DNA of 64,000 nucleotides, from contig CAZNOX010000001.1 in assembly GCA_964574875.1 (NCBI GenBank), positions 80,206-144,205 on the forward strand, given 5' to 3'. The notes under the pieces are model-generated. The model was given only the letters and a program-made list of their open reading frames with translations. It ran no database searches and was not told the DNA's origin. This stretch comes from an uncultured bacterium (lineage in GTDB: Bacteria > Macinerneyibacteriota > Macinerneyibacteria > Macinerneyibacteriales > DSCS01). This document shows, piece after piece, positions 11,482 through 53,677 of this stretch (the stretch's first letter is position 1; every line of letters starts with the position of its first letter). The position numbers and the translations under genes are program-made.

Positions 11482-11510
11482 AGAGACTCCTTTTTTTGGC
11501 ACTTTCAATC

Positions 11511-11589
11511 ATTATAGAGCAATTTAGTCAAAGGTCAAGATGCCCCGAAGGGAAAAGAATCTTGACAAAAAGCCCCCGACTCTTAATAT
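11511..11589. promoter_or_regulatory. Divergent promoter pair for the adenosine-kinase/polA operon (-) and the DnaA-like gene (+)
   Basis: Minus: TTGACC(11538-33)-N16-TATAAT(11516-11). Plus: TTGACA(11562-67)-N16-TAATAT(11584-89). Confidence 0.7.
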
Positions 11590-11609
11590 TAAGAGAAAGG
11601 GAGGTTTTG

Positions 11610-13931
11610 ATGCAAAAGCTTTTTGAAATCAATGGAATCGGGATACATCTCACAACCCAGGCCTCTGATTCCCTGGGACACACCGGATTCCTTTCTATCG
11701 AAGGGTCCGTATCCCCGAATAATATCCAGAGTTTTGAAGCCGCTCTGAAAAAGATCAAGGCCTTCGATATCTCTGTGATCGTCATCGATTTCAGCAAAGT
11801 CTCTTCATTCTGTGATGAAGCCTGGGCCGTGATCCGGCAGCAAAAAGAGAACCTCTCCCGTCCCGGAGAAGAGATCTTTCTTCTCAGGATGCCTCCCACC
11901 CTTTTCGAACAGTTTCACGCCCAGGGACATGACGAAATCCTGAAGCATTTCAGGGCCTTCGGCGACCTGGACCGCTACATGGTCTCCGCATCAAACAAAA
12001 CGCTCGCTGCCCCTGAGACAGAGGCCCCGGACATCTCGGATGAAGACAAGCCCGATTCCACGGAGAAGGCCATGGACAAACCGGCTCAGCCCACTCCATT
12101 TTCTCATGAAGAGACTGAAGAAGTCCTGTCAGAGGATCTTCCGGAAATCCCTGAAGAGGACATTATGGAGGACAACGCCCCGCAAGTGATGCAGGAACGC
12201 TTCCCTCTCAATGAGAGCCGGGAAGTCTTCGAAGAGACGGAACTTGCCGACCTTCCCGAAGAAGATATCGAAGAGGCGCTTCCTTCAAAGTCCTTCGGAG
12301 CGGAATCCATCCCTGAGAAAATGATCGCTATCCGGGGAAAGCTGCGCTCCTTATTTGAAAACAAGATCTACGAATGGAAAAGCCTGGGGTACGACACCGC
12401 TTACCTGGATGCCTATCTGGATAAAAACCTGGACGAAGCCAAAAAAGCCTTTGCCCTCTACTCCAAGAACCTTGCAGACTGCCGCGAGATGGAAGCCGCA
12501 GCCGACATGATCGAAAATCCGGCCATGAAAAAGGATCTGCTTCTGACAAAATCCCTTCTGAAAAAACCCATGGAGATCGATAAGGCCCGTGAAGCCTTTT
12601 CCCGTCTTCTCAAAGAAGCGGAACAGCTTGACCATGATGCTTTTCTTCCCCTGGCCGACTACCAGTTTGACAATTTCATCAAAGGGAACAATAAAGACAC
12701 CATAGAGATGGTCCTTCACCTTGTCCACCATCTGGACGCCTACGACCGGCCTCTTCTGCTCCATGGAGCCAACGGGACGGGCAAGACCCATATCCTTAAC
12801 GCTATCGGAAACACCATCCGTCTGAAGACATCACGCTCAGTCAACTACATTCCCGCCAACAACTTCATCGTGGAGCTGGAAAACATGCGCGAACAGGGAA
12901 GGCTTCACCTTTTCAGAAAACGGTACATGTCCTGTGAGGTCCTTCTCTTCGATGATGTCCATCTGCTTGAAGACGCCTCGTCCGCCGCTCATGAGTTCCG
13001 GTTCCTCATGGACGCCCTGGCCAGACAGTCAAAGCTGCTGATCATGGCCTCCGTCCTCAAGGCCGATGATTTCAAGTTTGTGAGCAAAGACCTTCAGTCA
13101 CGCCTGAAAAGCGCCATCCACCTCACCATGGCACCGCCTGACGAAGCCACATTGTCGCGTATCCTGGACAAACGCATGGGAGAGCTGAAGATCGATTCAG
13201 AGAAAGGCGTTCCCCGCTATCTGGCTCAAATGGCTCCCGGAGACATCAGAAAAGCCTTCGGGCTTCTGGAAACACTGCACCTCTATGCCAAGACTTATCA
13301 TGAAAGCATCAGTTTCGAACTGGTCCGCGAACTGACCTCGTCCACACTCTCCTATGAAGAGATCCGTGAGATGACACCTCCCGCCCCTCCCCAGGAGACG
13401 ATCTTCCCTGAACGGGAGGACTCCTTTCCAAAAGAGGAGTCCATCGGGGAGATGGAAAACGAACCCGAAGAGTCCCTTTCTGCGGATGTCGAAGAGGAGG
13501 TCTCATTGACCCCGGACGAAGGAGAGGACACCGTGTCCCTTCCCGAAGGGATGGAGCACAGGCTTGAAGGCGATATCCCCGACTATCTCCCTGAAGAGGG
13601 CGACGAGCCGGAGTCCTTCTCTGAAGAAGAGAATATCGTCCTTCCCCGTGAAGAGACTCCGGAAAATGAAGAGGCCGTTGTCTCCCCGGAAGAAGAGGAA
13701 TCCTTTGAACTTCCTGCAGAGGAGACGCCTGCAGAAGAGGAGGAGAGCCTGATCTCCGAAGAAGAGAAGGCTCCTTTCAATGAAGAATCTCCGTCTGAAG
13801 ATGATTCAGACCCCTTTGCCGGGCTGGATGATGATGAAGAGGGCCGCCCTCTTAGCGATGTCACAGAGGACTCTGACCTTGACCTCTGGGATGAAGTGGA
13901 TGAAAACGAAGACGATCCCTTCGCCCTGTAA
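11610..13931 (+). CDS. Multidomain DnaA/Hda-family AAA+ ATPase: STAS-like N-terminus, helical linker, DnaA domain III, long acidic tail; no domain IV
   Basis: FDNFIKG, Walker A GANGTGKT (12765-12788), Walker B LLFDDVH, LQSRL, GDIRKAFG; STAS-like VIVIDFSKVSSFCDEAWAVI; AAGGGAGG RBS before ATG 11610. Confidence 0.8.
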   Translation: MQKLFEINGIGIHLTTQASDSLGHTGFLSIEGSVSPNNIQSFEAALKKIKAFDISVIVIDFSKVSSFCDEAWAVIRQQKENLSRPGEEIFLLRMPPTLFEQFHAQGHDEILKHFRAFGDLDRYMVSASNKTLAAPETEAPDISDEDKPDSTEKAMDKPAQPTPFSHEETEEVLSEDLPEIPEEDIMEDNAPQVMQERFPLNESREVFEETELADLPEEDIEEALPSKSFGAESIPEKMIAIRGKLRSLFENKIYEWKSLGYDTAYLDAYLDKNLDEAKKAFALYSKNLADCREMEAAADMIENPAMKKDLLLTKSLLKKPMEIDKAREAFSRLLKEAEQLDHDAFLPLADYQFDNFIKGNNKDTIEMVLHLVHHLDAYDRPLLLHGANGTGKTHILNAIGNTIRLKTSRSVNYIPANNFIVELENMREQGRLHLFRKRYMSCEVLLFDDVHLLEDASSAAHEFRFLMDALARQSKLLIMASVLKADDFKFVSKDLQSRLKSAIHLTMAPPDEATLSRILDKRMGELKIDSEKGVPRYLAQMAPGDIRKAFGLLETLHLYAKTYHESISFELVRELTSSTLSYEEIREMTPPAPPQETIFPEREDSFPKEESIGEMENEPEESLSADVEEEVSLTPDEGEDTVSLPEGMEHRLEGDIPDYLPEEGDEPESFSEEENIVLPREETPENEEAVVSPEEEESFELPAEETPAEEEESLISEEEKAPFNEESPSEDDSDPFAGLDDDEEGRPLSDVTEDSDLDLWDEVDENEDDPFAL

Positions 13932-13945
13932 ATGAAAGGAAAAGC

Positions 13946-14461
13946 ATGACCGACTCGCGACAAAAAATCCGCCGTTTTACATCCCTGGGAATCTTTACAA
14001 GCCTTGTCATTATCATGACTCTTTTCGCCCGTATTCCCATGCCTCAGATCAAAGGATACATCAACCTGGGAGACTCCATGATCCTCCTGGGGACGCTCTT
14101 CTTCGGCGGAGCCTTCGGTGCTGTCATCGGCTCATTCGGATCGGCTTTAGCTGACGTGATCGGAGGGTACCCGAACTTTGCCATCTTCACCTTTATCATC
14201 AAAGGGATCGAGCCCTTGATCTTTGCCCTGCTCATCCGCGCGGGACAGAAAAGAGGCTATTCCATTCCCCGCCTTCTCTACGGAGCCGCTTTTGCCATGT
14301 TCTGGATGGTCGCCGGCTATTTCTGGGTGGAATATTTCATGTTCGGAGCCCCGGCAGCCTTTGCTGAAGTCCCCGGCAACATCATCCAGGCGGTGGGATC
14401 CATCTTTATCAGCATCGGACTCTACAATATCGTCCGGAATACAGTGAAAACACCCGCTTAA
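13946..14461 (+). CDS. ECF transporter substrate-specific (S) component
   Basis: IPMPQIKGYINLGDSMILL, GSALADVIGGY, TFIIKGIE, EVPGNIIQA. Confidence 0.85.
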   Translation: MTDSRQKIRRFTSLGIFTSLVIIMTLFARIPMPQIKGYINLGDSMILLGTLFFGGAFGAVIGSFGSALADVIGGYPNFAIFTFIIKGIEPLIFALLIRAGQKRGYSIPRLLYGAAFAMFWMVAGYFWVEYFMFGAPAAFAEVPGNIIQAVGSIFISIGLYNIVRNTVKTPA

Positions 14462-16896
14462 CCCTTTTTCTCCGGGGCTTTCTCGAGAGAGACAAGCCCC
14501 TTCTTTTCATCCAGCAGAACATGATCCCCTTTTTGGAACCGCCCGGACAGGATATCCCGCGAAAGGGCCGCTGTGACTTCCTTCTGAAGCAGACGCTTGA
14601 GAGGCCGGGCTCCCATGGTGGGGTCATAACCCAAGTTCACCATAAGCTGAAGGAACCCTTGCGAATAATCCAGTGTGATTCCCTGAGCCTCCAGCCTTTG
14701 GGCGATCCTCTGAAGCTGAAGGATGACGATCTCACGGATCTCTTCTCTTGAAAGAGGGGTAAACAGCACCATCTCATCCACCCGGTTGAGGAACTCCGGT
14801 TTGAAGTATTGATGAAGAAGCCCCCTGATGATCTCATTGAGGTCTGTCATGGCCGTTTCAGCTGATCCGTTGTCTTCTGCGGTGAGCCTGTCGGAAATAT
14901 GCTGGGCTCCGATATTGGATGTCATGATGATGATGGTGTTCCTGAAATTGACATTCCGTCCTTTACCGTCAGTGAGTCGCCCCTCGTCAAAAAGCTGAAG
15001 CAGGATATTCATCACATCAGGATGGGCCTTCTCGATCTCGTCCAGGAGGATCACCGAAAAGGGCTTGCGCCGAACAAGTTCTGTGAGCTGCCCCCCTTCA
15101 TCATGGCCCACATATCCCGGAGGAGAACCGATGAGCCGGGCAACGGCGTGTTTTTCCATATATTCCGACATATCGATACGGATGAGAAGGGATTCGTCGC
15201 CGTAAAGGAACTCAGTGAGAGCTTTTGAGACCTCTGTCTTTCCCACTCCTGTGGGCCCTAAAAAGAGAAAGACTCCGGCGGGTTTGTCGGGATCAGAGAG
15301 CCCTGCCCGTGATGTCCTGACCACTTCACTCACTTTTCTGATGGCCTCTTCCTGGCCCACGACCCTTTTGTGCAGCCACGCTTCCATATCAAGGAAGCGG
15401 GCCGACTCTTCAGCAGTGAGCCGGTTAACGGGGATCCCCGTCCACCTGGAGATGATCCGGGCGACATCGTCCTGGCGGACCACGTTATCCCGCTGTTCCC
15501 GGGCCCGCTTGTCTTCCCACTCATCCTTGGCTTCTTTGAGTTTCTCTTCCAGCTGTTTTTCCTCGACGCCGAGGTGGGCGACTTTTTCATAATCGCCGTC
15601 ATTAAAGGCCGATTCCTTTTCACGCCGTATGGAATCGAGTTTCCGCTCAAGCTGAGAGAGTTCTTCAGGAGTCTTAAAGGCATTCAGCCTCACCATGGCG
15701 GCCGCTTCATCGATGAGGTCGACAGCCTTGTCAGGGAGATGCCTGTCTGAGATATAACGCGCTGAAAGGAAGACAGCCGATTCCAGGGCATCATCTGTGA
15801 TATGGACCCGGTGAAAAGTCTCGTACTTCTCTTTGATCCCCTTGAGGATCCGGACAGCATCGTCAAGCCCGGGTTCTTCCACAAAGATGGGTTGAAATCG
15901 TCTCTCCAATGCCGGGTCTTTTTCAATATAGGTGCGGTACTCATCCACCGTGGTGGCTCCGATACACTGGATCTCTCCGCGGGCGAGGACGGGTTTCAGG
16001 ATATTGGCGGCATCCATGGCTCCCCCGCTTCTTCCGGCCCCGATGATGGTGTGGATCTCATCGATGAAGAGGATGATCTCACGCCGCTCTCCGATGATCT
16101 CCAGGACTTTTTTCAGGCGTTCTTCGAATTCACCCATATATTTGGCTCCTGCCAGGAGAGCCGCCATGTCCAGGGAAAGGATCTTCTTTTCTCTGAGGAT
16201 CTCCGGGACGTCGTTTTCCATGACACGCAGGGCCAATCCTTCGACGATGGCGGTCTTCCCCACACCGGCGTCTCCGATGAGAACGGGATTATTCTTCATC
16301 CTTCTGGAGAGGATGTGAATGAGCCTCTCGATCTCCTTTTCCCTCCCGATGACAGGATCCAGTTTATTCTGACGGGCGCGGGTGATGAGATCGATGGAGT
16401 AGCGGTTCAGGTACTCATCCTGTTCGCTGACCTGTGCTCCCTCTTTCTGGCTCATCCGGGTATACTCCCGGACTTTCTGCCGGGCCAGATCCAGATCAGC
16501 TCCAAGACTTCTCAACACGCGGTAGGAGACATTCTCCGATTCCCGGAGGATCCCCAGGAAAAGATGCTCCGGGCCCACGTACTGATGCCCCATCTCATTG
16601 GCCTCTTCAAAAGCCAGCCGGAGGATCATCTTGACCCCGGGAGTCAGATTATCCTCTTCACCTCCGGGCTGCTGCCGCCCCGGCTGGATAAAGCGCTGGA
16701 GATCCCGGGAGACAGACTCGTCGGAAATATTCAGAGCTGCAAAGACTTTTTCGAGGACTTTCCCCTTATGATCCAGAAGCGCAAGCAAGAGGTGCTCCGC
16801 TCCGATAAAATTATTGTTGTATTGACGGGCATAAGCGCCGGCCTGATAGACCGCCTCCCTGGCCCGGTCACTGAATGTGTCAAAAATATTCATCAT
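14458..16896 (-). CDS. clpC: ATP-dependent Clp protease ATP-binding subunit, ClpC type
   Basis: Clp-N repeats, GDAGVGKT and GPTGVGKTE Walker A motifs, short UVR-like middle domain, RIDMSEYMEKH. Confidence 0.88.
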   Translation of the reverse strand: MMNIFDTFSDRAREAVYQAGAYARQYNNNFIGAEHLLLALLDHKGKVLEKVFAALNISDESVSRDLQRFIQPGRQQPGGEEDNLTPGVKMILRLAFEEANEMGHQYVGPEHLFLGILRESENVSYRVLRSLGADLDLARQKVREYTRMSQKEGAQVSEQDEYLNRYSIDLITRARQNKLDPVIGREKEIERLIHILSRRMKNNPVLIGDAGVGKTAIVEGLALRVMENDVPEILREKKILSLDMAALLAGAKYMGEFEERLKKVLEIIGERREIILFIDEIHTIIGAGRSGGAMDAANILKPVLARGEIQCIGATTVDEYRTYIEKDPALERRFQPIFVEEPGLDDAVRILKGIKEKYETFHRVHITDDALESAVFLSARYISDRHLPDKAVDLIDEAAAMVRLNAFKTPEELSQLERKLDSIRREKESAFNDGDYEKVAHLGVEEKQLEEKLKEAKDEWEDKRAREQRDNVVRQDDVARIISRWTGIPVNRLTAEESARFLDMEAWLHKRVVGQEEAIRKVSEVVRTSRAGLSDPDKPAGVFLFLGPTGVGKTEVSKALTEFLYGDESLLIRIDMSEYMEKHAVARLIGSPPGYVGHDEGGQLTELVRRKPFSVILLDEIEKAHPDVMNILLQLFDEGRLTDGKGRNVNFRNTIIIMTSNIGAQHISDRLTAEDNGSAETAMTDLNEIIRGLLHQYFKPEFLNRVDEMVLFTPLSREEIREIVILQLQRIAQRLEAQGITLDYSQGFLQLMVNLGYDPTMGARPLKRLLQKEVTAALSRDILSGRFQKGDHVLLDEKKGLVSLEKAPEKKG

Positions 16897-16941: not shown

Positions 16942-19693
16942 CTAAAAAGGAAGGATGGCCCCGATCTCAAAAAAGCTCCCCTGGTTATCCGGATCTTCAA
17001 GATCCCAGGCGTATCCCCCGCCCACAGTGAAAAACCCGGTGCTGATACGCCCCAGGACTCCCGCTGTGGCCACTGAGCCGTCGGCTTCCAGACGTCCCTG
17101 GTCGAAAAAGGCTGTGTCGATGAAGAGAGCTCCTTCTGCGATACTGTAATTGTAGCGGATCTCTCCGCTCAAGGCCCCGATGAGACGGCTGGGGATATCA
17201 GTGTTCAGCCCCCTGACGGTGACTCTTTTGTCATACCGGAAGCCTGTAAAGGGTTCCTGAAACGAGTGGTTCTCGCTCCGGATCCGGGGAAGGTCCTGGG
17301 GAGCAGGTTCTCCCCATTGTTTATGCACTTCCCCATAGAGTGAGACGACAAAGGGGGAGATCCTGCGAACCAGATAGGCATCGCATTTCAGGTAGGTGGA
17401 CAGATCTCTCTCTCCCGCGAAGGGAAGCGAAAAGGCGATCCCTGTATGAACTCCCGTCTCATGATAGGGGTAAAAAAGGCGGGGATGGCTGTTCTTGTAG
17501 ATATAAGAAAAATAGAGATAGGGGTCACTGTAATCCCTGGGAAGCTGAGTCTCATCTCCCGAAAACGAATCCCCGTTGAGGATGTCGGCCTTCCGGTACC
17601 CCCCTCCCGTTTCGAAGATCCGTGTCACATAGCGGTTATGCGGATGATCCACGGGGAGGGAGAGAGAGAGAGATCTGCCCCCCGCTGATTCGCTGTCGAA
17701 GTTCTTTTGAAAGATAATCTTCTGTGCTGTCTCCATGGGACCAGGCCGAGATCCCGATATCAAAGGCTGTGCTCTTATTGGTATAGGAGATATTATAGAA
17801 GATATCCTCCCAGTTGGCATCATCGATCCCGGCAAAGACCTGAAATGTATGCCATCCCATGGGTTCGGAAAAGACGGTCATGAACCCCGGGTAGACCTCT
17901 TCGTCCATATAGAGGGGAAGAAAACTGATGAGACGAAGATTCCTGAAGGGGCGGTACGGGCCGTTGAAGGCCCCCTCTTCGGGGATATTCTGATTCAGGG
18001 AAGCCCGGGGCTTGATGGTCATCCAGGCAGGACGGTCCACATCCCGGGTGACATCGGGTTCTCTGTGGGGGTCGATGAGGCACACGCGCATGGAAGAGCG
18101 CTCACGTGAGCTGATGCACAGGATGCCGTCATCTGTCCATTGCACGGGTTTTAGAAATCCCCTCTGCCGTGTCACCTGCCTCAGAGAGCCGTCTTTGATC
18201 TCCACTCTGAAGAGGGACGCTCTCTCCCTGTCATCCATGGCGAAGAGGACCGTCTGCTCATCAGGGGAGACCACCGGTGAAAACGGACGCTGGGGAAGCG
18301 GAAAGAGCTGAGCTGTCTCTGAAGGAATGTCGTAAAGGAAAAGATAGTATCTTCGTTCAGAAGGATGAAAGAGCGCCGCAGCCAGTGTGGACCCTTGTCC
18401 GGTGAGATCATAGATCTCTTCTCCGGAAAGAGGACTGAAAAGGGTCACGGGCTCTCCGTTCCCCCCTGTCCGGGCAATCACGGCGGTTCCGTGTCCGGTA
18501 TTCCTGAGGTAATAGAGCGTCCCGTTCATGGACACGGGATCGAAAGCGCGTTCATCCCGTGTCAACGCTCTCTCTCCGTGTCCCTGTTTGGAAAGGAAAT
18601 AGATGTCGCTGTAAAGAGATCCGTGTTTTCCCCGGATGGTCTTACCGTAGTAGAACCCCTTCTCATCGGCGAAGATTTTGCCGAAAAAGGGCTGTTCCGT
18701 GATCCGTTTCAGTCTCTGCCGGCGGGGGTCATACACATAGAGCCCCTGAGCCGGTTCCTTTGTCTTCCGTGTCCCCGTGATGATGAACCGGCCGTCTGCG
18801 GCCATGAGGCCATCCAGGACGTCAAAAGAGGGGATCTCAAGGTCTTCAGAGATCTCTGAAAGGCTTTCCAGGGAATCGGCCTTCTCCCTATAGTACTGTT
18901 CCATGGCCTTTCTCCAGCGCTTCGTGTAATCCTTGTAGGATTCGCCGAAACTCTCTTCGAAGGCCTTTTTAAAAAGAAACGTTCCGAAAAAATCACGTCT
19001 TTTAAAGAGACGGCCGAATTCGGCCGCCTTTTCAGGATGCTCGGCATAGAGAGTGCGGATCTGGGAAAATCCCTTGGCGTAGAGAAGAGGGCCGTCATCA
19101 GGCGTGATCCCCCATGTCTTCCATGAGCTGAAGAGTGCTGCGTTTTCCAGCCAGCGCTCTCCCCTCATGAGCCCCCAGGGCTCTAAAGCAAAAAACTGAG
19201 CATAACCTTCATGGACTTCAGCGGGGACATCCAGGGACGGGCCGAAGATATTCGTCCAGGATTTGGTGTTTTCAAAGATGAGGGCATGGACCATCTCATG
19301 GGCGATGACCTTTTCAAGCCAGGGCTGGTCCCCGGTGAAGTGGTCCAGATAACGTGAGGGAGAGACCCAGATGAAAAAGTATCCGTAGGGAAGTGTGGCT
19401 CCATTGGCGATATCGTCCACATCGGAGATGAAGATGGAATATTTCTTTTTGAAAGAGAGCCCCAGGTTTTTCTCATGCATGGCATAGACCTGTTCACTGA
19501 TGCCCCCCGCTTCACGGGCTGTCTCTTCAAGGCCGGTGCTGTAAATGATCCGGAAGTTCTCTGTCTCATAGACCCGCCAGGTGAGCTCGGGATGATTCCT
19601 GTGATTCATGAGGGAGAATGTTCCCAATCCCGCTACCGGGACTGCCGCCAGGAGAAAGAGGACACCACAGAGAGCAATTCGTTTCAAGACCAT
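16942..19693 (-). pseudogene. Frameshifted outer-membrane protein: gluzincin (MA-like) peptidase domain + beta-propeller + beta-barrel; split into ORFs 17636..19693 and 16942..17835
   Basis: Signal peptide, HEMVH...EGYAQFF, propeller-like repeats; frame 1 ends QISLSLPPRGSSA* and frame 2 continues SLSLPVDHPH to a C-terminal FFEIGAILPF beta-signal; the switch falls in the (TC)7/G6 tracts. Confidence 0.75.
17660..17673 (-). repeat. (TC)7 dinucleotide simple sequence repeat at the frameshift site
   Basis: Plus strand GAGAGAGAGAGAGA at 17660-17673; adjacent C6 run at 17678-17683. Confidence 0.9.
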
Positions 19694-19720
19694 GAAGGCT
19701 CCTTTTTTTCAATCAGGGTT

Positions 19721-21442
19721 TCACTTCAATTCACTCAGGGCTTTTTTTGTAAACTCGACGATATCTTTGAGATAAGACCTGTTAAAATGGAACTGGAGCC
19801 CCGCTGTCTCGTAAAGGTCCTCTACCGGGCAGGAATAACCCAAAGCGAGAAAGGCATCATACTCTTTCAGTGTGGACTCCTTCCCCTGTGTCTTATAGTT
19901 CCTGTAGAGAGCCAGAGCCCCCAGCTGGGCCATACCGTATTCGATGTAGTAGAAGGGAACTTCGAAGATATGGAGCTGATACATCCAGCTGATGATCTTT
20001 TCTGTCTCAAGCCCGCTCCAGTCCACACCGGGGTTGAAACGGTCCATGAGCCCCGAAAAGAAGGCGTCCCGCTCTTTGACTGTGTGCTCAGGGTGCGTGT
20101 AGATCCACTGCTGGAAGGCATCCACGATCATGCACCAGGGGAGAAACTTCAAAGCTCCTTCAAGCTCGTCGCGCCTGGCTTTTTCCAGGTCAGAGGCATC
20201 ATTGTAGAAGTGTCCCCAGTAATCCATGGTCAAAAACTCCATTCCCATGGACGCCAGCTCGGCGACTTCGCTGGGAGTATGAAGATACGGGGTGATGGTG
20301 ATGTCGCGTGTGGCAAAAGTATGCATGGCATGCCCGGATTCATGAAGCAGCGTGACCACATCCCTGTGCAGCCCCACGGCATTCATGAAGATAAAGGGCG
20401 CTTTTGTCTCAGCCAGGGGGTAGTTGTACCCTCCGGGGGCTTTGCCTTTCCGGTTCTCCAAATCAAGGAGCCCGGTGTTCTTCATCATCTCCAGTTTTGC
20501 TGCATAATCGGTCTTCACGTCTTTCAGGACACGGATGGCCCCGTCGATGAGCTCTTCGGAATCCTGAAACGGTTTCAAAGTCTTTCCGTCCAGGTCCACG
20601 GAGGTATCCCAGGGACGGACAGAATCCACACCCAGAGCCTTTCGGCGCTCTTCATTGAGTTGTCTCAGGAAAGGAATGACTTCGTGCTCCACAGCATCGT
20701 GAAAAGCCATGATATCGACAGGACTATAGGAAAAGCGCCCCAACTCGCGATGTTTATAATCACGGTAATTATCAAAGCCGGCGTTGTGAGCCTGTTTGAT
20801 ACGGACCTCTTTCAACTGGTCGAAGAGAGAGTCCAGCTTCTCTTTGGCTGACCCCAGGGTCTCCATCCTGAGACGCCAGGCTTTTTCACGGATATCCCTG
20901 TGAGGATCTTTGAGATAGACCCCGAGCTGAGAGAGTGTCTTCTCCTCCCCGTCGAAAGGGGCTGTGAGTTGAGAGTTGATCGCTCCGTACTTGGTGGAGA
21001 GTTCTGATTCCTTCACCTGGAGAGGGATATTCTCCTCCCGGTAAAGCTCCATATCGTTGGCGATGATCTTTTGAAGATGGCCGAACTTCTCCCGGGGAAG
21101 CTTTTGAAAATAATCATTTTCATAGATCTTCTTTTTGAACGCGAAATCATAGGGTTTCATCTGTGAGACCACAGAAGCATAGAAGGTGTGAAAAGCCTTC
21201 CCCTTCTCCTCATCGTCAGCAAAACGAGTCATGGCGATGTAGCGGCGGGCGGCCTCTTCATGGACGATGTTTTCAAGCTCCCCGTATTTTTCAAGAAAAG
21301 TGATGAGCTCCCCTTCTGAACTCAGGGCTTCACCCGTCATCTCCTCAAGAAGAGGTTTCACTTCTTCCCATGACGAGATATCAAGGTCTTCGCTGAAATA
21401 TCGGCGTTGCGGTTTTTCGATTTTTTTATCCGTGACGATCAT
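19721..21442 (-). CDS. M3 family oligoendopeptidase (PepF-like)
   Basis: RKGKAPGGY, HESGH zinc motif, EVAELASM, HIFEVPFYYIEY. Confidence 0.92.
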   Translation of the reverse strand: MIVTDKKIEKPQRRYFSEDLDISSWEEVKPLLEEMTGEALSSEGELITFLEKYGELENIVHEEAARRYIAMTRFADDEEKGKAFHTFYASVVSQMKPYDFAFKKKIYENDYFQKLPREKFGHLQKIIANDMELYREENIPLQVKESELSTKYGAINSQLTAPFDGEEKTLSQLGVYLKDPHRDIREKAWRLRMETLGSAKEKLDSLFDQLKEVRIKQAHNAGFDNYRDYKHRELGRFSYSPVDIMAFHDAVEHEVIPFLRQLNEERRKALGVDSVRPWDTSVDLDGKTLKPFQDSEELIDGAIRVLKDVKTDYAAKLEMMKNTGLLDLENRKGKAPGGYNYPLAETKAPFIFMNAVGLHRDVVTLLHESGHAMHTFATRDITITPYLHTPSEVAELASMGMEFLTMDYWGHFYNDASDLEKARRDELEGALKFLPWCMIVDAFQQWIYTHPEHTVKERDAFFSGLMDRFNPGVDWSGLETEKIISWMYQLHIFEVPFYYIEYGMAQLGALALYRNYKTQGKESTLKEYDAFLALGYSCPVEDLYETAGLQFHFNRSYLKDIVEFTKKALSELK

Positions 21443-27260: not shown

Positions 27261-27353
27261 ATTGAAACTCTTATCTGAGTGCCATACACCTAACCTGTCA
27301 ATCAGAAGGCTGCAGAAACATCATGACTGATATCTCTTCTCTTTTTTGTCTGT

Positions 27354-28106
27354 TTAGCATTTATCCGTTTTGGTACAGATGATCATCATCTCAATGTCAT
27401 CCGGGTCAAGGGGCTGTCTATTGAACTCCCCTGGTTTGCACCCCAGGATTTCGACACGGCTGAATCCCGCCATTTCGCATAACATTGTTAATTCAGCCGG
27501 GATATAGACTCGTTGAATATCTTGAAGCCTTTCCCCATGAGCGTGATCATCGTACCACTCATCGGGTAATTGCCAGTGAACCAATCCCTGAAGGTAATCA
27601 AAGCTTTTTGCTTTTATCCTCTCGCCTCTATATTTCCTTAAGCCGTTGTAGGTTGTCAGGATCAACTTCGCACCATCGTTCAAGGAACCATGAATCGTCT
27701 TGAGTACGGAGAGATCCTGTTGCCATCCCAGAGTCCCCAATCCGGATTCACAGATACAGATCGCTCCATCGAATGTTTTCACAGGGCCGTTCAGCAATTC
27801 TGATAAGCGAAGAATGTCACTTTCAAGGAGGGTGAGTGTGACCTTGTTCTTCTCAGCCCTTTGTCTTGCTTCATCAAGCATCTTCGGAGAGATATCTATA
27901 CCGGTAACAACACATCCTGCTTTGGCTAATCCAATTGAGTGTCTCCCCGCTCCGCAACCGATATCAAGGATCGTTGAGCCGGTTTCAGCCCCAAGTTCGC
28001 TGATGATAAATCGGACCTCCTGTGGAGTTCCCTGCAGGAAATTCCGGTCGATGTGCTCCAGGCTTTCAGAAGCGAATTTCTCACTTTTCCAGGGATTCAT
28101 CATCAA
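27354..28106 (-). CDS. Class I SAM-dependent methyltransferase
   Basis: ILDIGCGAGRHS motif I, VTGIDIS, FDGAICI. Confidence 0.88.
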   Translation of the reverse strand: MMMNPWKSEKFASESLEHIDRNFLQGTPQEVRFIISELGAETGSTILDIGCGAGRHSIGLAKAGCVVTGIDISPKMLDEARQRAEKNKVTLTLLESDILRLSELLNGPVKTFDGAICICESGLGTLGWQQDLSVLKTIHGSLNDGAKLILTTYNGLRKYRGERIKAKSFDYLQGLVHWQLPDEWYDDHAHGERLQDIQRVYIPAELTMLCEMAGFSRVEILGCKPGEFNRQPLDPDDIEMMIICTKTDKC

Positions 28107-28190
28107 TTTGACTTCCTTTCCCCTTTGAACACTCTTTTGACTGGCACTTGGACATGTGTTTGTGCTCCTGTCAACGGAAGATAATAAAGA

Positions 28191-30665
28191 TTACTCTTTC
28201 TTCTCATCCAGCAGCTGGCGGACACGTCTCAGGACCTCTTCAGGGCCGTAGGGTTTCTGGATGAGCTGCATCTCTTCGTTCAGGATGAAATTCGCATGAA
28301 CCGCCGTTTTGCTGTACCCGCTGGAAAAGAGGACGGGGAGATGAGGGTCTCTCATCCTGATCTCTTCCCAGACTTCATAGCCGTTTTTCACAGGCATGAC
28401 CACATCCAGGAGAAGCAGGCGGATCTTTTCGCTGTTGCTATAATACATCTCCAGGGCTTCTTCTCCGTTTCTGGCACTCAGGACGGTATACCCGGCCTCT
28501 TCGAGGACACTCACAGCCATCTTCCGGACCGCCGGGTCGTCTTCGGCCACGAGAAGAGTCTCGTTCCCTCCTCTGACGGCTCCCTGGATCAACGGTCCCA
28601 CCGCGGCTGCTTGGCGCTCGGTCACGGGCAGGTAGATCTTGAACGTTGATCCCTGGCCGGGTTCACTGTAGGCCGTGATCATTCCTTCATGCTGTTTGAT
28701 GATCCCGAAAGCCGTAGAAAGCCCCAGCCCGGTCCCCTTCCCTTCACCTTTGGTGGTAAAGAAGGGCTCAAAGACCATCTCCAGAGTCTCTTTATCCATT
28801 CCCACTCCGGTATCCGTTACGCTGAGAAGAACAAACCGTCCCGGTTCAGCCCAGAGATGGTGAGAACAATATTCGGTATCGATGAGGACATTCTGAGTCT
28901 CAATGATCAATGTCCCCCCTTCCGGCATGGCATCCCTGGCATTGACCACCAGGTTCATCAGCACCTGCTCCATCATGGCACTGTCGGCATAGACCTCTCC
29001 CAGACGGGCACCCGGAATCCATTCCAGGCGGATATGTTCACCGATGATCCGCTGAAGCATATTCAACAGGTTTTTCACCAGGTTATTGAGCTGCAGTACC
29101 CGGGGTTCCATGACTTGCCTGCGGCTGAATGCCAGAAGCTGCTTTGTGAGGACGGAGGCTCTTTCGGCCCCTCTGATGATCTCTGCCACATATTCTCCCG
29201 ACTTGTCACCCTCTTGACAGCGGGTGGACAGAAGCTGAGCATATCCCAGGACCACCTGGAGGATATTATTGAAATCGTGAGCGATCCCGCCGGCCAGATG
29301 GCCCACAGCTTCCATTTTATGAGCCTGTCTGTACTCCTCTTCCAGGGCCAGTTCACGGGTGACATCCTGTTTCACCGCCACAAAACTTGTGATGGCGCCG
29401 TCCTCCCCCAGGATGGGAGAGATGACGCTCTTTTCCGTAAAGAGGCTCCCGTCTCTCCTCTTGTTCACCATGAGCCCCTGCCAGGTCTTGCCATGGATAA
29501 GGGCATCCCACATGGCTTCGTAAAACTCATGGTCCCGGGTCCCGCCTTTCAAAAAGGAGGGGTTTTTCCCCAGGACTTCCCGGGCAGAATAACTGGTGAC
29601 TTTTTCAAAGGCGGGGTTCACATACTGGATCGCCCCCGCACGGTCGGTGATCATGATGCTCTCCCCGGCCTGTTCAATCGCCTTGAGGAGAAGCGCATGC
29701 CTGGCCTCTTCCTCTTTTCGTTTTGTGATATCCCTTGTGACACCCAGAATTGAAACCGGCCTGTTATTGTTATAGATGATAGAAACCGACATTTCTGTCC
29801 AGATCAGCCGGCCGTCTTTATGTCTCTGCTGACATTCCAGGACTTCCCCAGGCCGAAGTCCTCCTTTTCTCTCAGCATCGATAAGCCATTGTTTGATCCG
29901 CTCTCTCCCTGAATCAGGAAGATGTACAGAGAGGTCATTCCGCAAAACCTCTTCGGGAGTAAATCCCAGGATACGTTCAATCGAAGGTGAAACATAGGTG
30001 TATTTTTTCCTCTCCAGATCCCATGCCCATACGATGTCCGCCATCTGCTCTGCCAGATGTCTGTATTTTTCTTCTTCTTTAGCCAGTTTCCGCTCCAAAC
30101 TCCTTTTTCTCCAGCTTTCCAGAAAGACAGCAGCGATGATGACAAAGGCGGGAGGATAGAAAAGCAGGACAAAGGGGCCCACCCTCCGGGCCACATCCCA
30201 TCCCATTCCTCCGGGAAGGGCCAGCTGCAACAGCATCATGATGATATGGACGATAAGCGAAGAGAGCCACAGGGGAAGGATCTTTTCCCAGCGCTTGTCT
30301 CTGCGCCTGAGTGAATAGTGGATGGACCCCACCAGAGCCGCTTCTGCGATCACCCCCACGCCCACCCAGGCTCCGGCCCCGCCGATAGAGAGGCGGAAAG
30401 CTCCGGCCATGAGGAGACTCACAAGAGCCGTGAGGGGGCCTCCGAAAAAGCCCGCCAGGCTGATGATAATGGAACGTCCGTCATAAATGACTCCGGGGGC
30501 GAATCGTAAGGGAGTCATCATCCCCGCAATGGCTGTGAGGCCAAAAATGACCCCCGTGAGAAGGCGGAAAAGTCCCTTGCGGCTCTCGATACGGCCGGCA
30601 AAAAAAAGGATAAAGACGCCCAGCGTGACAAGAAGAGTGATATTATGGACGAGTTCCAGTAACAT
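28191..30665 (-). CDS. Hybrid sensor histidine kinase: 5TM-LytS/YhcK-type input, two PAS domains, HisKA, HATPase, REC
   Basis: GVIYDGRS, PAS motifs, H-box LAGGIAHDFNNIL, NLVVNARDAM, DTGVGM, PFFTTK, GTGLGL, REC LLLDVVMP. Confidence 0.92.
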   Translation of the reverse strand: MLLELVHNITLLVTLGVFILFFAGRIESRKGLFRLLTGVIFGLTAIAGMMTPLRFAPGVIYDGRSIIISLAGFFGGPLTALVSLLMAGAFRLSIGGAGAWVGVGVIAEAALVGSIHYSLRRRDKRWEKILPLWLSSLIVHIIMMLLQLALPGGMGWDVARRVGPFVLLFYPPAFVIIAAVFLESWRKRSLERKLAKEEEKYRHLAEQMADIVWAWDLERKKYTYVSPSIERILGFTPEEVLRNDLSVHLPDSGRERIKQWLIDAERKGGLRPGEVLECQQRHKDGRLIWTEMSVSIIYNNNRPVSILGVTRDITKRKEEEARHALLLKAIEQAGESIMITDRAGAIQYVNPAFEKVTSYSAREVLGKNPSFLKGGTRDHEFYEAMWDALIHGKTWQGLMVNKRRDGSLFTEKSVISPILGEDGAITSFVAVKQDVTRELALEEEYRQAHKMEAVGHLAGGIAHDFNNILQVVLGYAQLLSTRCQEGDKSGEYVAEIIRGAERASVLTKQLLAFSRRQVMEPRVLQLNNLVKNLLNMLQRIIGEHIRLEWIPGARLGEVYADSAMMEQVLMNLVVNARDAMPEGGTLIIETQNVLIDTEYCSHHLWAEPGRFVLLSVTDTGVGMDKETLEMVFEPFFTTKGEGKGTGLGLSTAFGIIKQHEGMITAYSEPGQGSTFKIYLPVTERQAAAVGPLIQGAVRGGNETLLVAEDDPAVRKMAVSVLEEAGYTVLSARNGEEALEMYYSNSEKIRLLLLDVVMPVKNGYEVWEEIRMRDPHLPVLFSSGYSKTAVHANFILNEEMQLIQKPYGPEEVLRRVRQLLDEKKE

Positions 30666-50917: not shown

Positions 50918-53677
50918 TCACCTGCCTTCTTCTTGGACAACGCGGACACAGCGGCTGCACAGGTCCGGATGGTTCTCACTTTTTCCTACTGTCGGGGAAT
51001 ATTCCCAGCAACGCGAACACTTCTCATGAGGCGATTTGACAGCCCCTATGGAGAGGCCCGGCCAGTCGCTGCACGGGCTCATCCCGTCCTTTTTTTCCAC
51101 AAAGACAGAAGAGACGATGTTCATCCGGCGCAGATCGTCCAGATGGCTTCTCAGGAAAGCTTCATCGTCCTGATCGTCTGTATGAAGATAAATATAGGCA
51201 TCCAGAGAGTGTCCGATCTCTCCGGAGTTTCGTTTGGCTTCAAGGATACGGCGGATATCGTCACGTAACGAGTCAAGACGCTCCCATTTTTCTGTGAGCT
51301 CTCTCTCCTCAGGGCAACTGATCTCCGGCCAGAGGGACAGATGAACGCTCTCTTCCAGAGAGGCCATCTCACGGAGATATCCCCAGACTTCTTCGGCCGT
51401 AAAGGGGATGAGAGGGGCAAGCATCCGGGTCAGGGCGGTGACCGTCTCCCAGACTACAGTCAATGTGGCCCTCCGGCTCATCCATTCTTTCCCGTCGGCA
51501 TAGAGGTTGGATTTACTCCCGTCCAGGTAAGACGAGGAGAGTTTCACCGTGCAATAGTTGTGAATCGTATGGAAGACCTTGTGAAACTCAAAAGCCTCAT
51601 AGGCCTTGTCCACATCCCTGGTGAGGGATTTCAGTTCCAGCATCATGTGACGGTCGATCTCAGGCATCTTCTCATAATCCACACGCCCCTTCTCCACATC
51701 AAACCCGTGGAGGACACCCAGCATAAAGCGCAGGGTGTTCCTGATCCTCCGGTAGGCTTCTGCGATGCGTTTCATGATCTCTGCAGAGAGCGGGACATCG
51801 TTACGGTAGTTTTCAGAAGCGATCCAGAGCCTGAGGACGTCAGCTCCGTACTCCCTGATGACATCCTGGGGGTCCACACCGTTCCCCTGGGACTTGGACA
51901 TCTTCCGTCCTTCTCCGTCGACGATAAAACCGTGGGTCAGGACTGTTTTGAAGGGAGCTCTCCCCTGTTCTGCCGTACTCAGGGTAATGGCGCTGTTGAA
52001 CCATCCCCTGTGCTGGTCCGACCCTTCGAGATAGAGGTCAGCGGGGAGGCCAAGAGCCTCAGACTTTTCCACAACACTCTTGTAGCTGGATCCCGATTCA
52101 AACCAGACGTCCAGAATATTCATATCTTTTTCAAGCCCCGCATGGCCGCAGGAGGGGCAGCGGTTGAGTTCCCCCAGGATCTCGTCTTCTGTCCTGGTGA
52201 ACCATCCGTCAGAGCCCTCTTCACCGATAAACTCCGCAGCTCGCTTCATGATCTTCTCGTCCACGGCATACTCAGAGCATTCCGGGCAGTGAAACATCGT
52301 GATGGGGACTCCCCAGCTTCTCTGCCGTGAGATACACCAGTCGGGACGGTCCTGGACCATCCCCCTGATCCTGTTTTCTCCCCATTCGGGGATCCATTCT
52401 GTCTGTCCGATCTCATCGAGGATATGCTTTCTGAGATCCTTATGGTCGATCTTGACAAACCACTGCTCCGTGGCCCGGAAGATGACAGGCTTTTTGCACC
52501 GCCAGCAATGGGGATAGGAGTGAGAGATGGTTCCGGCGTGAACGAGAGCCTTCTTCTGCCGCAGAAGTTCCATGATAGGCTCATTGGCTTCAAAGACCGA
52601 GACGCCCTCCATGGGTTTGAACTCCGCAGTAAAACGCCCGTTGTCATCCACGGGGTTCAATATGGGAAGGCCGTACTTCAGCCCTGTGATATAATCCTCC
52701 TGCCCGTGTCCCGGGGCAGTATGGACACATCCGGTCCCTGTATCATCAGTCACATAGTCCGCCAGGACGACCCGGCTCAGACGTCCGTCAATGAAGGGAT
52801 GTCTCGCTTCGCGCCCTTCCAGCTCTCGTCCGGTGAACTTCTCCGTGACGGTGTACTCTGTGATCCCGATCTCCTCCATCATCTTTTCAAGAAGAGGTTC
52901 TCCGACGATCCAGTGTTCGCCGTTCACAGCCACATCCACATAGGTGAAGTCAGGATGAAGAGCGATGGCCACATTGGCGGGGAGGGTCCATGGCGTGGTG
53001 GTCCAGATGATGAAAAAAGTCCCCTTCTTTTCACTGTCTTCAAACTTGACCGTGATGGAGGGAGAGGCATGATCCCCGTATTCGATCTCGGCTTCTGCCA
53101 GTGCTGTGGTGCAGTGTGAACACCAGTAAACGGGTTTTTTCTGTCTGAAGATATAACCGTCCATCACAAGTTTTGTAAAGATCTCGACGATCCCCTTTTC
53201 ATAACTCCTGTCGATGGTCAGGTAAGGCTTGTCCCACTCTCCGAAGATCCCCAGCCGTTCAAAATCCCTGCGCTGTTTTTCCACGTATTTCAAAGCGTAA
53301 TTCCGGCACTTCCTCCGGAATTCAGGAACCGAAAGAGCTTCGCTCCCCGGCTGTTTGGAGACTTCCAGTTCAATGGGGAGACCGTGACAGTCCCATCCGG
53401 GGATATAGGGGGTCTTGTACCCCTTGAGTGATTTGTACTTCAGGATAAAGTCTTTTAATGTCTTGTTCAGGGCATGCCCCATGTGGATCATGCCGTTGGC
53501 ATAGGGAGGGCCGTCGTGGAGAATATATTTCCCGCCGTTTTCCCTTTTTTTTATGATCTCTTCATAGATCCCCTTGTCCCGGCTCCATTGTTCAATGATC
53601 TCTTTTTCCCGGACAGGGAGATTGGCTCTCATGGGAAAATCGGTTTTGGGTAAATTCAAAGTCTCTTTGTAATCCAC
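50918..53677 (-). CDS. ileS: Isoleucyl-tRNA synthetase (type 1, with C-terminal zinc finger)
   Basis: LHDGPPYANG, HMGH, PGWDCHGLP, DWCISRQR, KMSKS, CSRCW...CSRC. Confidence 0.98.
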   Translation of the reverse strand: MDYKETLNLPKTDFPMRANLPVREKEIIEQWSRDKGIYEEIIKKRENGGKYILHDGPPYANGMIHMGHALNKTLKDFILKYKSLKGYKTPYIPGWDCHGLPIELEVSKQPGSEALSVPEFRRKCRNYALKYVEKQRRDFERLGIFGEWDKPYLTIDRSYEKGIVEIFTKLVMDGYIFRQKKPVYWCSHCTTALAEAEIEYGDHASPSITVKFEDSEKKGTFFIIWTTTPWTLPANVAIALHPDFTYVDVAVNGEHWIVGEPLLEKMMEEIGITEYTVTEKFTGRELEGREARHPFIDGRLSRVVLADYVTDDTGTGCVHTAPGHGQEDYITGLKYGLPILNPVDDNGRFTAEFKPMEGVSVFEANEPIMELLRQKKALVHAGTISHSYPHCWRCKKPVIFRATEQWFVKIDHKDLRKHILDEIGQTEWIPEWGENRIRGMVQDRPDWCISRQRSWGVPITMFHCPECSEYAVDEKIMKRAAEFIGEEGSDGWFTRTEDEILGELNRCPSCGHAGLEKDMNILDVWFESGSSYKSVVEKSEALGLPADLYLEGSDQHRGWFNSAITLSTAEQGRAPFKTVLTHGFIVDGEGRKMSKSQGNGVDPQDVIREYGADVLRLWIASENYRNDVPLSAEIMKRIAEAYRRIRNTLRFMLGVLHGFDVEKGRVDYEKMPEIDRHMMLELKSLTRDVDKAYEAFEFHKVFHTIHNYCTVKLSSSYLDGSKSNLYADGKEWMSRRATLTVVWETVTALTRMLAPLIPFTAEEVWGYLREMASLEESVHLSLWPEISCPEERELTEKWERLDSLRDDIRRILEAKRNSGEIGHSLDAYIYLHTDDQDDEAFLRSHLDDLRRMNIVSSVFVEKKDGMSPCSDWPGLSIGAVKSPHEKCSRCWEYSPTVGKSENHPDLCSRCVRVVQEEGR

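Follow-up and report, generated by a model that had tools for sequence, protein, structure and literature searches.

A (TC)7 frameshift in the gene of a putative peptidase-propeller-barrel protein from an uncultured Mcinerneyibacteriota-related bacterium: probably a recent one-off null allele

The stretch of DNA considered here, called the window throughout, comprises 64 kb (64,000 nucleotides) of contig CAZNOX010000001.1 from the metagenome-assembled genome (MAG) GCA_964574875.1 of an uncultured bacterium. On its minus strand, at 16942-19693, lies a gene for an exported protein which is broken in two by a frameshift at a run of seven TC dinucleotides. The initial annotation of this gene had suggested a phase-variable surface peptidase captured in the OFF state, with a sequencing error or a recent pseudogenisation as alternatives. 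The comparison with related assemblies described below points to a real and probably one-off mutation which segregates in natural populations. The gene and the elements around the break are as follows, in window positions.

16942-19693, minus strand: the whole disrupted gene; intact orthologues have 913-916 residues, and the gene is flanked by pepF and a clpC-like gene.
17636-19693, minus strand: open reading frame (ORF) A, 685 residues, covering the signal peptide, the HExxH peptidase domain, the beta-propeller and the barrel up to its fifth or sixth strand.
17636-17638, minus strand: premature stop codon TAA of ORF A.
17660-17673, minus strand: the (TC)7 tract, (GA)7 on the plus strand, coding for Ser-Leu repeats of a barrel strand; four nucleotides (TCTC) longer than the (TC)5 of all in-frame relatives.
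16942-17659, minus strand: remainder of the gene in the +1 frame, with approximately barrel strands 6-16 and the C-terminal beta-signal ...FFEIGAILPF; fully open, without a signal peptide of its own.
17674, minus strand: A/G polymorphism (Ile/Val674) adjoining the tract; A in all (TC)7 carriers and in the (TC)5 contig of run X9, G in the other (TC)5 alleles.
17678-17683, minus strand: G6 run, C6 if read on the plus strand, located upstream of the tract; the 95% lineage has GGGGGA here.
19699-19704, minus strand: AAGGAG ribosome-binding site, 5 nt ahead of the ATG and preceded by an A7 run.

In window letters, the minus strand from 17683 to 17650 reads GGGGGG-CAG-A-(TC)7-CCTCCCC-GTG. ORF A ends as ...ISLSLPPRGSSA (in a longer rendering, ...GGQISLSLPPRGSSA), so that the reading given in the initial annotation, seven units and a stop after 685 residues, is confirmed from the letters themselves. 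The repaired alleles that it had listed were likewise reproduced in silico: eight units, five units or a G run shortened to G5 yield single ORFs of 917, 915 and 916 residues, respectively, each ending in FFEIGAILPF. The eight-unit allele would insert Ser-Leu and leave the alternation of the strand intact. The length of the G6 run did not vary among the relatives and runs compared. Annotations should merge the 685-residue ORF and the ORF of approximately 230 residues into a single gene marked as disrupted. With the read-through protein as query, full-length homologues of 910-945 residues were retrieved; the closest is P0001 (915 residues, 96% identity), followed by matches at 78% and 58% identity. 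The nearest match in the genome collection, at 78% amino acid identity, belongs to a Candidatus Mcinerneyibacteriota MAG.

The frameshift is a real mutation, and an artefact is ruled out as far as contigs can do so, since the same allele was independently assembled in two samples of the Joint Genome Institute (JGI) and in one Logan run. The Logan contigs of run X2 equal the window exactly over 17360-17908, including the seven units, at a word depth of 7.3, and X2 is the only indexed run containing the 31-mers that span the seven-unit tract. JGI samples 3300010349 (contig L005) and 3300009778 (contig L006) both read CAGA(TC)7 and align with the window without gaps, at 99.90% and 99.85% identity. 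At the protein level, the 90% cluster around P0001 holds six intact variants and, three times, the split form: P0033 and P0028 on a 216,981-nt NCBI contig, which are the window's own product (P0033 is identical to ORF A), P0034 and P0030 on one JGI contig, and P0029 on another. A direct look-up of contigs coding for the 685-residue product gave no record, and the split form came to light by way of this cluster. Errors are frequent in repeats, and the window derives from the assembly of a strain mixture, evident as bubbles in the Logan contigs. That the organism is truly in frame and the break an artefact is nevertheless hardly credible: three more independent assemblies, made with differing assemblers from two or more samples, contain the seven-unit allele, two gene callers give the same 685-residue product, and the surrounding 20 kb contain no further coding indel. 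The sequencing error considered in the initial annotation is thus rejected.

The absence of other coding indels was established against contig L001, which is syntenic with the window and 96.8% identical over 20.3 kb. Only three indels separate the two; two of them are single-base and intergenic (window 25028 and 19703), and the third is the tract. Within the gene itself, which is 95% identical between the two, the only indel is the addition of four bases in the tract, where L001 reads CAGG(TC)5. Because no more than three indels are found in 20.3 kb, the tract indel reads as a specific lesion within an otherwise clean assembly, and the earlier remark that no other frameshift had been noticed holds for this distance. 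The intergenic difference at 19703 falls in the A-run at 19703-19709, just upstream of the AAGGAG, which counts seven A in the window and six in L001.

As to strain composition, the Logan contigs of run X1 show bubbles of two co-existing strains at nearly equal depth (17530-17646, 14635 and other sites), and those of X2 contain several single-nucleotide polymorphisms (SNPs). The window is nearer to the X1 consensus at most sites, yet it carries the tract allele of X2. Judged from these patterns, the assembled window genome may be a strain-mixed consensus.

The comparison of tract lengths across relatives, which the initial annotation had proposed as a check, returned seven units only in the window, X2, L005 and L006, and five units elsewhere. 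The sequence occurs in runs from sludge, digester, lagoon and marine-sediment metagenomes, and the tract states of these runs were read from Logan contigs, which drop rare variants. Every other population examined has the in-frame length, from more than 99% down to approximately 77% nucleotide identity and in all four habitats; among the contigs, it is present in L001-L004 and L007-L018. The states that define this distribution are listed below.

Run X1 (sludge): G(TC)5; one SNP is the only other difference from the window.
Run X9: A(TC)5, otherwise identical to the window over 351 nt.
Runs X5, X7, X12, X8 (marine sediment): tract 4 nt shorter than that of the window; in X8, the in-frame length is found in two lineages.
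Runs X17 and X19 (sludge; a lineage of approximately 87% likeness here): tract 4 nt shorter than that of the window.
Run X20 (sludge; the same lineage of approximately 87%): the contig aligns only to 17669, and its continuation fits five units.
Contigs L007-L009 (98.5-99.3% identity in the gene): G(TC)5.
Contigs L001, L017 and L018 (95%): G(TC)5.

Thus, ON and OFF alleles both exist in nature and in closely related populations. Among more than 20 contigs and populations, only five and seven units were found, and no allele of six or eight. Downstream of the tract the frame is intact in all (TC)7 carriers, with no second lesion. Exact-pattern scans of a metagenome contig collection, with the tract flanks and with the downstream flank, gave no match; this collection does not contain the contigs in question and is uninformative on allele frequency.

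All (TC)7 carriers have in common one local haplotype block, at 17560-17674. The same block is found with G(TC)5 in X1 and with A(TC)5 in X9, and the alleles form a nested series, G(TC)5 to A(TC)5 to A(TC)7. The common block, together with the nested series, points to a single origin of the seven-unit allele, as far as can be read from these sequences. A recurrent origin was also considered, prompted by the more distant SNPs: those at 18132 (Asp/Gly521), 18524 and 16789 occur in all combinations with the tract state, all four of them in the case of Asp/Gly521. It was set aside as unlikely, since the compound state of A plus seven units is confined to that one local block and sites separated by over 400 nt can be shuffled by consensus building or recombination. 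The shuffling of the distant SNPs is attributed to recombination or to consensus mixing of co-occurring strains.

The perfect repeat is restricted to the clade of 95-100% identity, within which sequences diverge by at least 5% with no change in the length of the (TC)5. Seven contigs of the 85% lineage, each from a different assembly, have an interrupted site, CTCTCTCTTTCACTCC, with the codons CAG CTC TCT CTT TCA CTC CCT. The 77% lineages have the interrupted sites TTATCTCTTTCC and TTATCACTTTCC, and the orthologue of 58% amino acid identity has no repeat at this site. What is kept in the 85% and 77% lineages, instead of the repeat, is the peptide (I/V/L)SLSLP(V/L)D. The interruption of the repeat under a conserved peptide suggests that the perfect (TC)5 arose incidentally, from the choice among synonymous codons in a beta-strand of alternating Ser and Leu.

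In the window, (TC)7 is the longest dinucleotide run and the only one of more than five units. Runs of at least seven units appear in 1-2% of composition-matched simulated 64 kb windows, and runs of at least five units in 64-94%; therefore, the present seven-unit tract goes beyond chance, whereas the ancestral five-unit tract does not. Enrichment in simple sequence repeats (SSRs) was not found in the 64 kb. The same gene contains another short run, at 17405-17414, which is (TC)5 on the plus strand and codes for GERD in the barrel; its length changes in no relative or run.

The layout of the intact protein was derived from a confident AlphaFold2 model of P0001, the 96%-identical orthologue, built on a 19-sequence alignment, with a predicted local distance difference test (pLDDT) score of 84.9 and a predicted template modelling (pTM) score of 0.86. 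In this model, a hydrophobic N-terminal signal is followed by an alpha/beta and helical domain (approximately residues 35-280), a propeller (approximately 290-540), a linker and about 16 long strands (587-910); the strand count is that given by DSSP for the model, and the closed barrel is putative. The corresponding elements of the window are given below.

18854-19591, minus strand: peptidase domain, residues ~35-280, alpha/beta and then helical.
19286-19300, minus strand: zinc-binding motif HEMVH (H132, E133, H136).
19208-19210, minus strand: E162, candidate third ligand.
18074-18826, minus strand: TolB/tricorn-like beta-propeller, residues ~290-540.

The residues H132, E133, H136 and E162, that is, an HExxH motif with a downstream Glu as in MA-clan (gluzincin-type) zinc metallopeptidases, are invariant in the 19 homologues. 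Pfam assigned no family to either part of the ORF or to the intact orthologue, and NCBIfam returned only sub-threshold matches, to flagellinolysin (HExxH) and TolB. Among the distant members, Peptidase_MA_2 matches three of 19 (best E 7e-12), and distant homologues carry PD40 and Tricorn_N. The family profile matches TolB structures with E 1e-12 and, weakly, the barrel of the POTRA-domain protein 9ccg_A (E 0.0017), and Foldseek finds TolB, tricorn and BamA. The Pfam family Omp85 (PF01103) is hit only by the C-terminus of homologue P0004, below threshold (17.4 bits against a cut-off of 24, E 0.0034), with no match in the close orthologue. No POTRA family was detected in the 19 homologues at E<=0.01, and the model has only a short linker (541-574) at this place. 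Taken from the model, the exported protein would join a putative HExxH zinc peptidase to a TolB-like propeller and, at the C-terminus, to an Omp85-like barrel with about 16 strands.

The strand of the model that contains residue 674 spans 663-681 and is approximately the sixth of about 16. The truncated product is thus predicted to retain about five and a half strands in addition to the peptidase and the propeller, and to lose the remaining barrel and the C-terminal beta-signal. This agrees with the earlier proposal that most of the barrel is lost through the break while the peptidase and propeller domains are left. By what is known of outer-membrane protein biogenesis, such a product should not be assembled by the beta-barrel assembly machinery (BAM). 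The label "surface" is another matter and is unproven. In the Omp85 superfamily the N-terminal domains are normally periplasmic, and, by analogy, those of the present protein would probably face the periplasm if its barrel is Omp85-like.

The explanation that is favoured, with a probability of approximately 0.7, is a recent one-off slipped-strand loss-of-function allele which segregates in a Mcinerneyibacteriota-related population and involves no dedicated switch. Within the 95-100% clade, synonymous codon choice would have turned Ser-Leu-Ser-Leu codons into a perfect (TC)5. Replication slippage would then have inserted TCTC in one sub-lineage, whose haplotype already had the G-to-A change (Val674Ile). 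The resulting (TC)7 shifts the frame and brings in a stop 11 codons on, with the loss of about ten of the sixteen barrel strands and of the beta-signal, and the truncated product could presumably no longer insert into the outer membrane. The null allele would be young, as no second lesion is present, and stably inherited, coexisting with intact alleles in related digester or sludge populations. It may be described as a segregating null allele or a nascent pseudogene, possibly neutral and possibly favoured by a local pressure. Of the pseudogenisation named in the initial annotation, a recent null allele is supported by the nested single-origin haplotype, and further decay downstream is not seen.

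Several points weigh against this explanation. Alleles were seen in contigs only, and minority tract lengths within the samples could have escaped. A step of two units is less common than a step of one, and the six-unit intermediate is missing from the contigs and populations examined. At least two samples carry an OFF allele whose downstream frame is intact, a finding that also fits a reversible or still-useful state. Finally, the shuffled distant SNPs could reflect recombination or a chimeric consensus, and strictly clonal arguments are weakened to this extent.

The main competing explanation is a true contingency locus, in which slippage of the (TC)n tract reversibly switches the peptidase ON and OFF at high frequency, the window being caught in the OFF state. 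This is considered unlikely, although several features recommend it: the repeat lies within the ORF and its unit number sets the frame (685 residues with seven units, 915 or 917 with five or eight), secondary decay is absent, the eight-unit revertant merely adds Ser-Leu to a strand whose alternation is preserved, and ON and OFF alleles are found in very close populations, including the A(TC)5 that differs in nothing else over 351 nt. A contingency locus is, however, expected to show many tract lengths and recurrent changes and to keep its repeat as a repeat. Here, the OFF allele goes back to a single origin, on one local haplotype, the ON length does not change over at least 5% divergence and several habitats, the 85% and 77% lineages do not share the repeat, the window has no SSR enrichment, and the tract sits in mid-gene, in a structural strand of a core syntenic gene. 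CT/TC tracts do drive the ON/OFF variation of outer-membrane protein genes in Helicobacter pylori (PMC10564699), but two tract states among more than 20 contigs and populations compare with 29 CT patterns in 536 oipA sequences (PMC10564699). The phase-variation proposal of the initial annotation therefore survives in part: an SSR slippage frameshift does exist in one gene of approximately 915 residues, with ON and OFF alleles in nature, whereas the two states, the single-origin OFF allele, an ON length stable down to 77% identity and the interrupted repeat of the 85% and 77% lineages oppose a switch. A working reversible switch in an uncultured free-living anaerobe, with the seven units turning the peptidase off under local pressure from phage or grazers, is accordingly doubtful. 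Equally doubtful is reversion of the seven-unit tract as such a switch would have it, by gain of one unit (the Ser-Leu insertion, tolerated in the strand) or loss of two. Were it true, a contingency locus would have been caught at birth outside host-associated pathogens, and SSR phase variation would be known from a free-living candidate phylum as well, which is not the reading favoured by the present evidence.

The remaining explanations concern the fate of the truncated gene. The truncation may be adaptive, the loss of the barrel removing a phage receptor or a costly protease, or freeing a soluble periplasmic peptidase-propeller, so that the allele spread under selection. The OFF allele stands at consensus level in at least two samples, the peptidase and propeller ORF retains its signal peptide, and four of the six in-gene SNPs among OFF carriers are synonymous. 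Substitutions are too few for a test of selection, the samples with the OFF allele may be related, and five and a half orphan strands would likely lead to misfolding or degradation, so that selection for the truncated form is regarded as improbable. A leaky allele is also conceivable. The frameshift creates in frame a CCC-C quadruplet, five codons ahead of the premature stop, at which a +1 slip would add one Pro:

17653-17656, minus strand: CCC-C quadruplet, read in frame A as CCT CCC CGT, between the tract and the stop; hypothetical +1 leak site, read from the sequence.

The quadruplet CCC-C is a known +1-prone site in bacteria, from work on m1G37 and EF-P. At 17656-17653, tRNA-Pro could re-pair with CCC in the +1 frame, which is the downstream frame and is intact in all carriers, and some full-length protein with one additional Pro might be made, the allele then being leaky or recoded and not null. 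Against this stand low basal slip rates, the lack of a stimulatory element, be it an internal Shine-Dalgarno sequence further upstream or an A site occupied by a rare or stop codon, and the four sense codons that follow CGT; moreover, the site came about incidentally with the mutation and shows no conservation for recoding. Such bypass is deemed very unlikely.

The neighbourhood of the gene is composed of housekeeping genes in syntenic order (PepF, ClpC, SerRS, PolA, IleRS, ProRS, S1 and TilS). The order pepF, disrupted gene, clpC is kept in the homologue contigs from 58% to 96% identity. The two neighbours of the disrupted gene are the following.

19721-21442: pepF.
14458-16896: clpC-like gene.

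A possible paralogue in the window, the 919-residue ORF at 50918-53677, proved to be IleRS, and the gene is single-copy and conserved. Elsewhere in the window, a segment of approximately 930 nt (27264-28197), with a SAM-dependent methyltransferase ORF at 27354-28106 on the minus strand, is present in the window and in L005 and absent from the 96.8%-identical L001; it represents a gene presence/absence difference between close lineages. An ORF of 811 residues at 11496-13931 on the plus strand (773 residues in L001) has DnaA/IstB-like AAA+ Pfam matches, adjoins an ECF transporter S-component and is conserved in all related contigs.

Beyond the single gene, the case offers a worked example of how a frameshift in a MAG can be shown to be real and placed in its population context from public assemblies alone. 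It is this context that separates a contingency locus from a one-off slippage null allele. The intact architecture, an uncharacterised combination of signal peptide, HExxH...E peptidase, TolB/tricorn-like propeller and Omp85-like barrel without POTRA, as the model has it, may merit study in its own right.

Among known systems, the nearest in appearance are the CT-tract genes of Helicobacter pylori. The sabA and hopZ genes, like oipA (hopH), undergo CT-tract phase variation. In oipA, too, a CT/TC run inside the ORF of a beta-barrel outer-membrane protein shifts the frame by slipped-strand mispairing and natural ON and OFF alleles exist; the oipA tract lies in the 5′ signal-peptide region and is retained as a repeat by every strain; it is highly polymorphic, with 29 patterns in 536 sequences, and covers 5-11 units in both states (PMC10564699). 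The tract of the window differs in lying mid-gene, in having two states with a single-origin OFF allele, in being unconserved as a repeat beyond the 95% clade, and in its free-living anaerobic host. Ordinary slipped-strand frameshift pseudogenes and null alleles share with it the one-off unit gain at a chance short run, the truncation, the intact sister strains and the lack of any other lesion. From these there is no essential difference; what is unusual is that several metagenomes allow the allele and its immediate precursor, A(TC)5, to be traced. As regards the protein, the Omp85 superfamily (BamA, TamA) and the type Vd autotransporters such as PlpD likewise have a C-terminal barrel of about 16 strands, an aromatic beta-signal and a large N-terminal module. 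PlpD consists of passenger, POTRA and 16-strand barrel, whereas in the present protein no POTRA was detected, the Pfam Omp85 score is below the gathering cut-off, and the N-terminal module is predicted to be an HExxH peptidase with a TolB-like propeller. That propeller resembles those of TolB and of the tricorn N-terminus (Tricorn_N, PD40) by profile (E 1e-12) and fold. It is set apart from TolB by a score far below the equivalog cut-off, by its fusion to a metallopeptidase and a barrel, and by its position outside any Tol-Pal operon.

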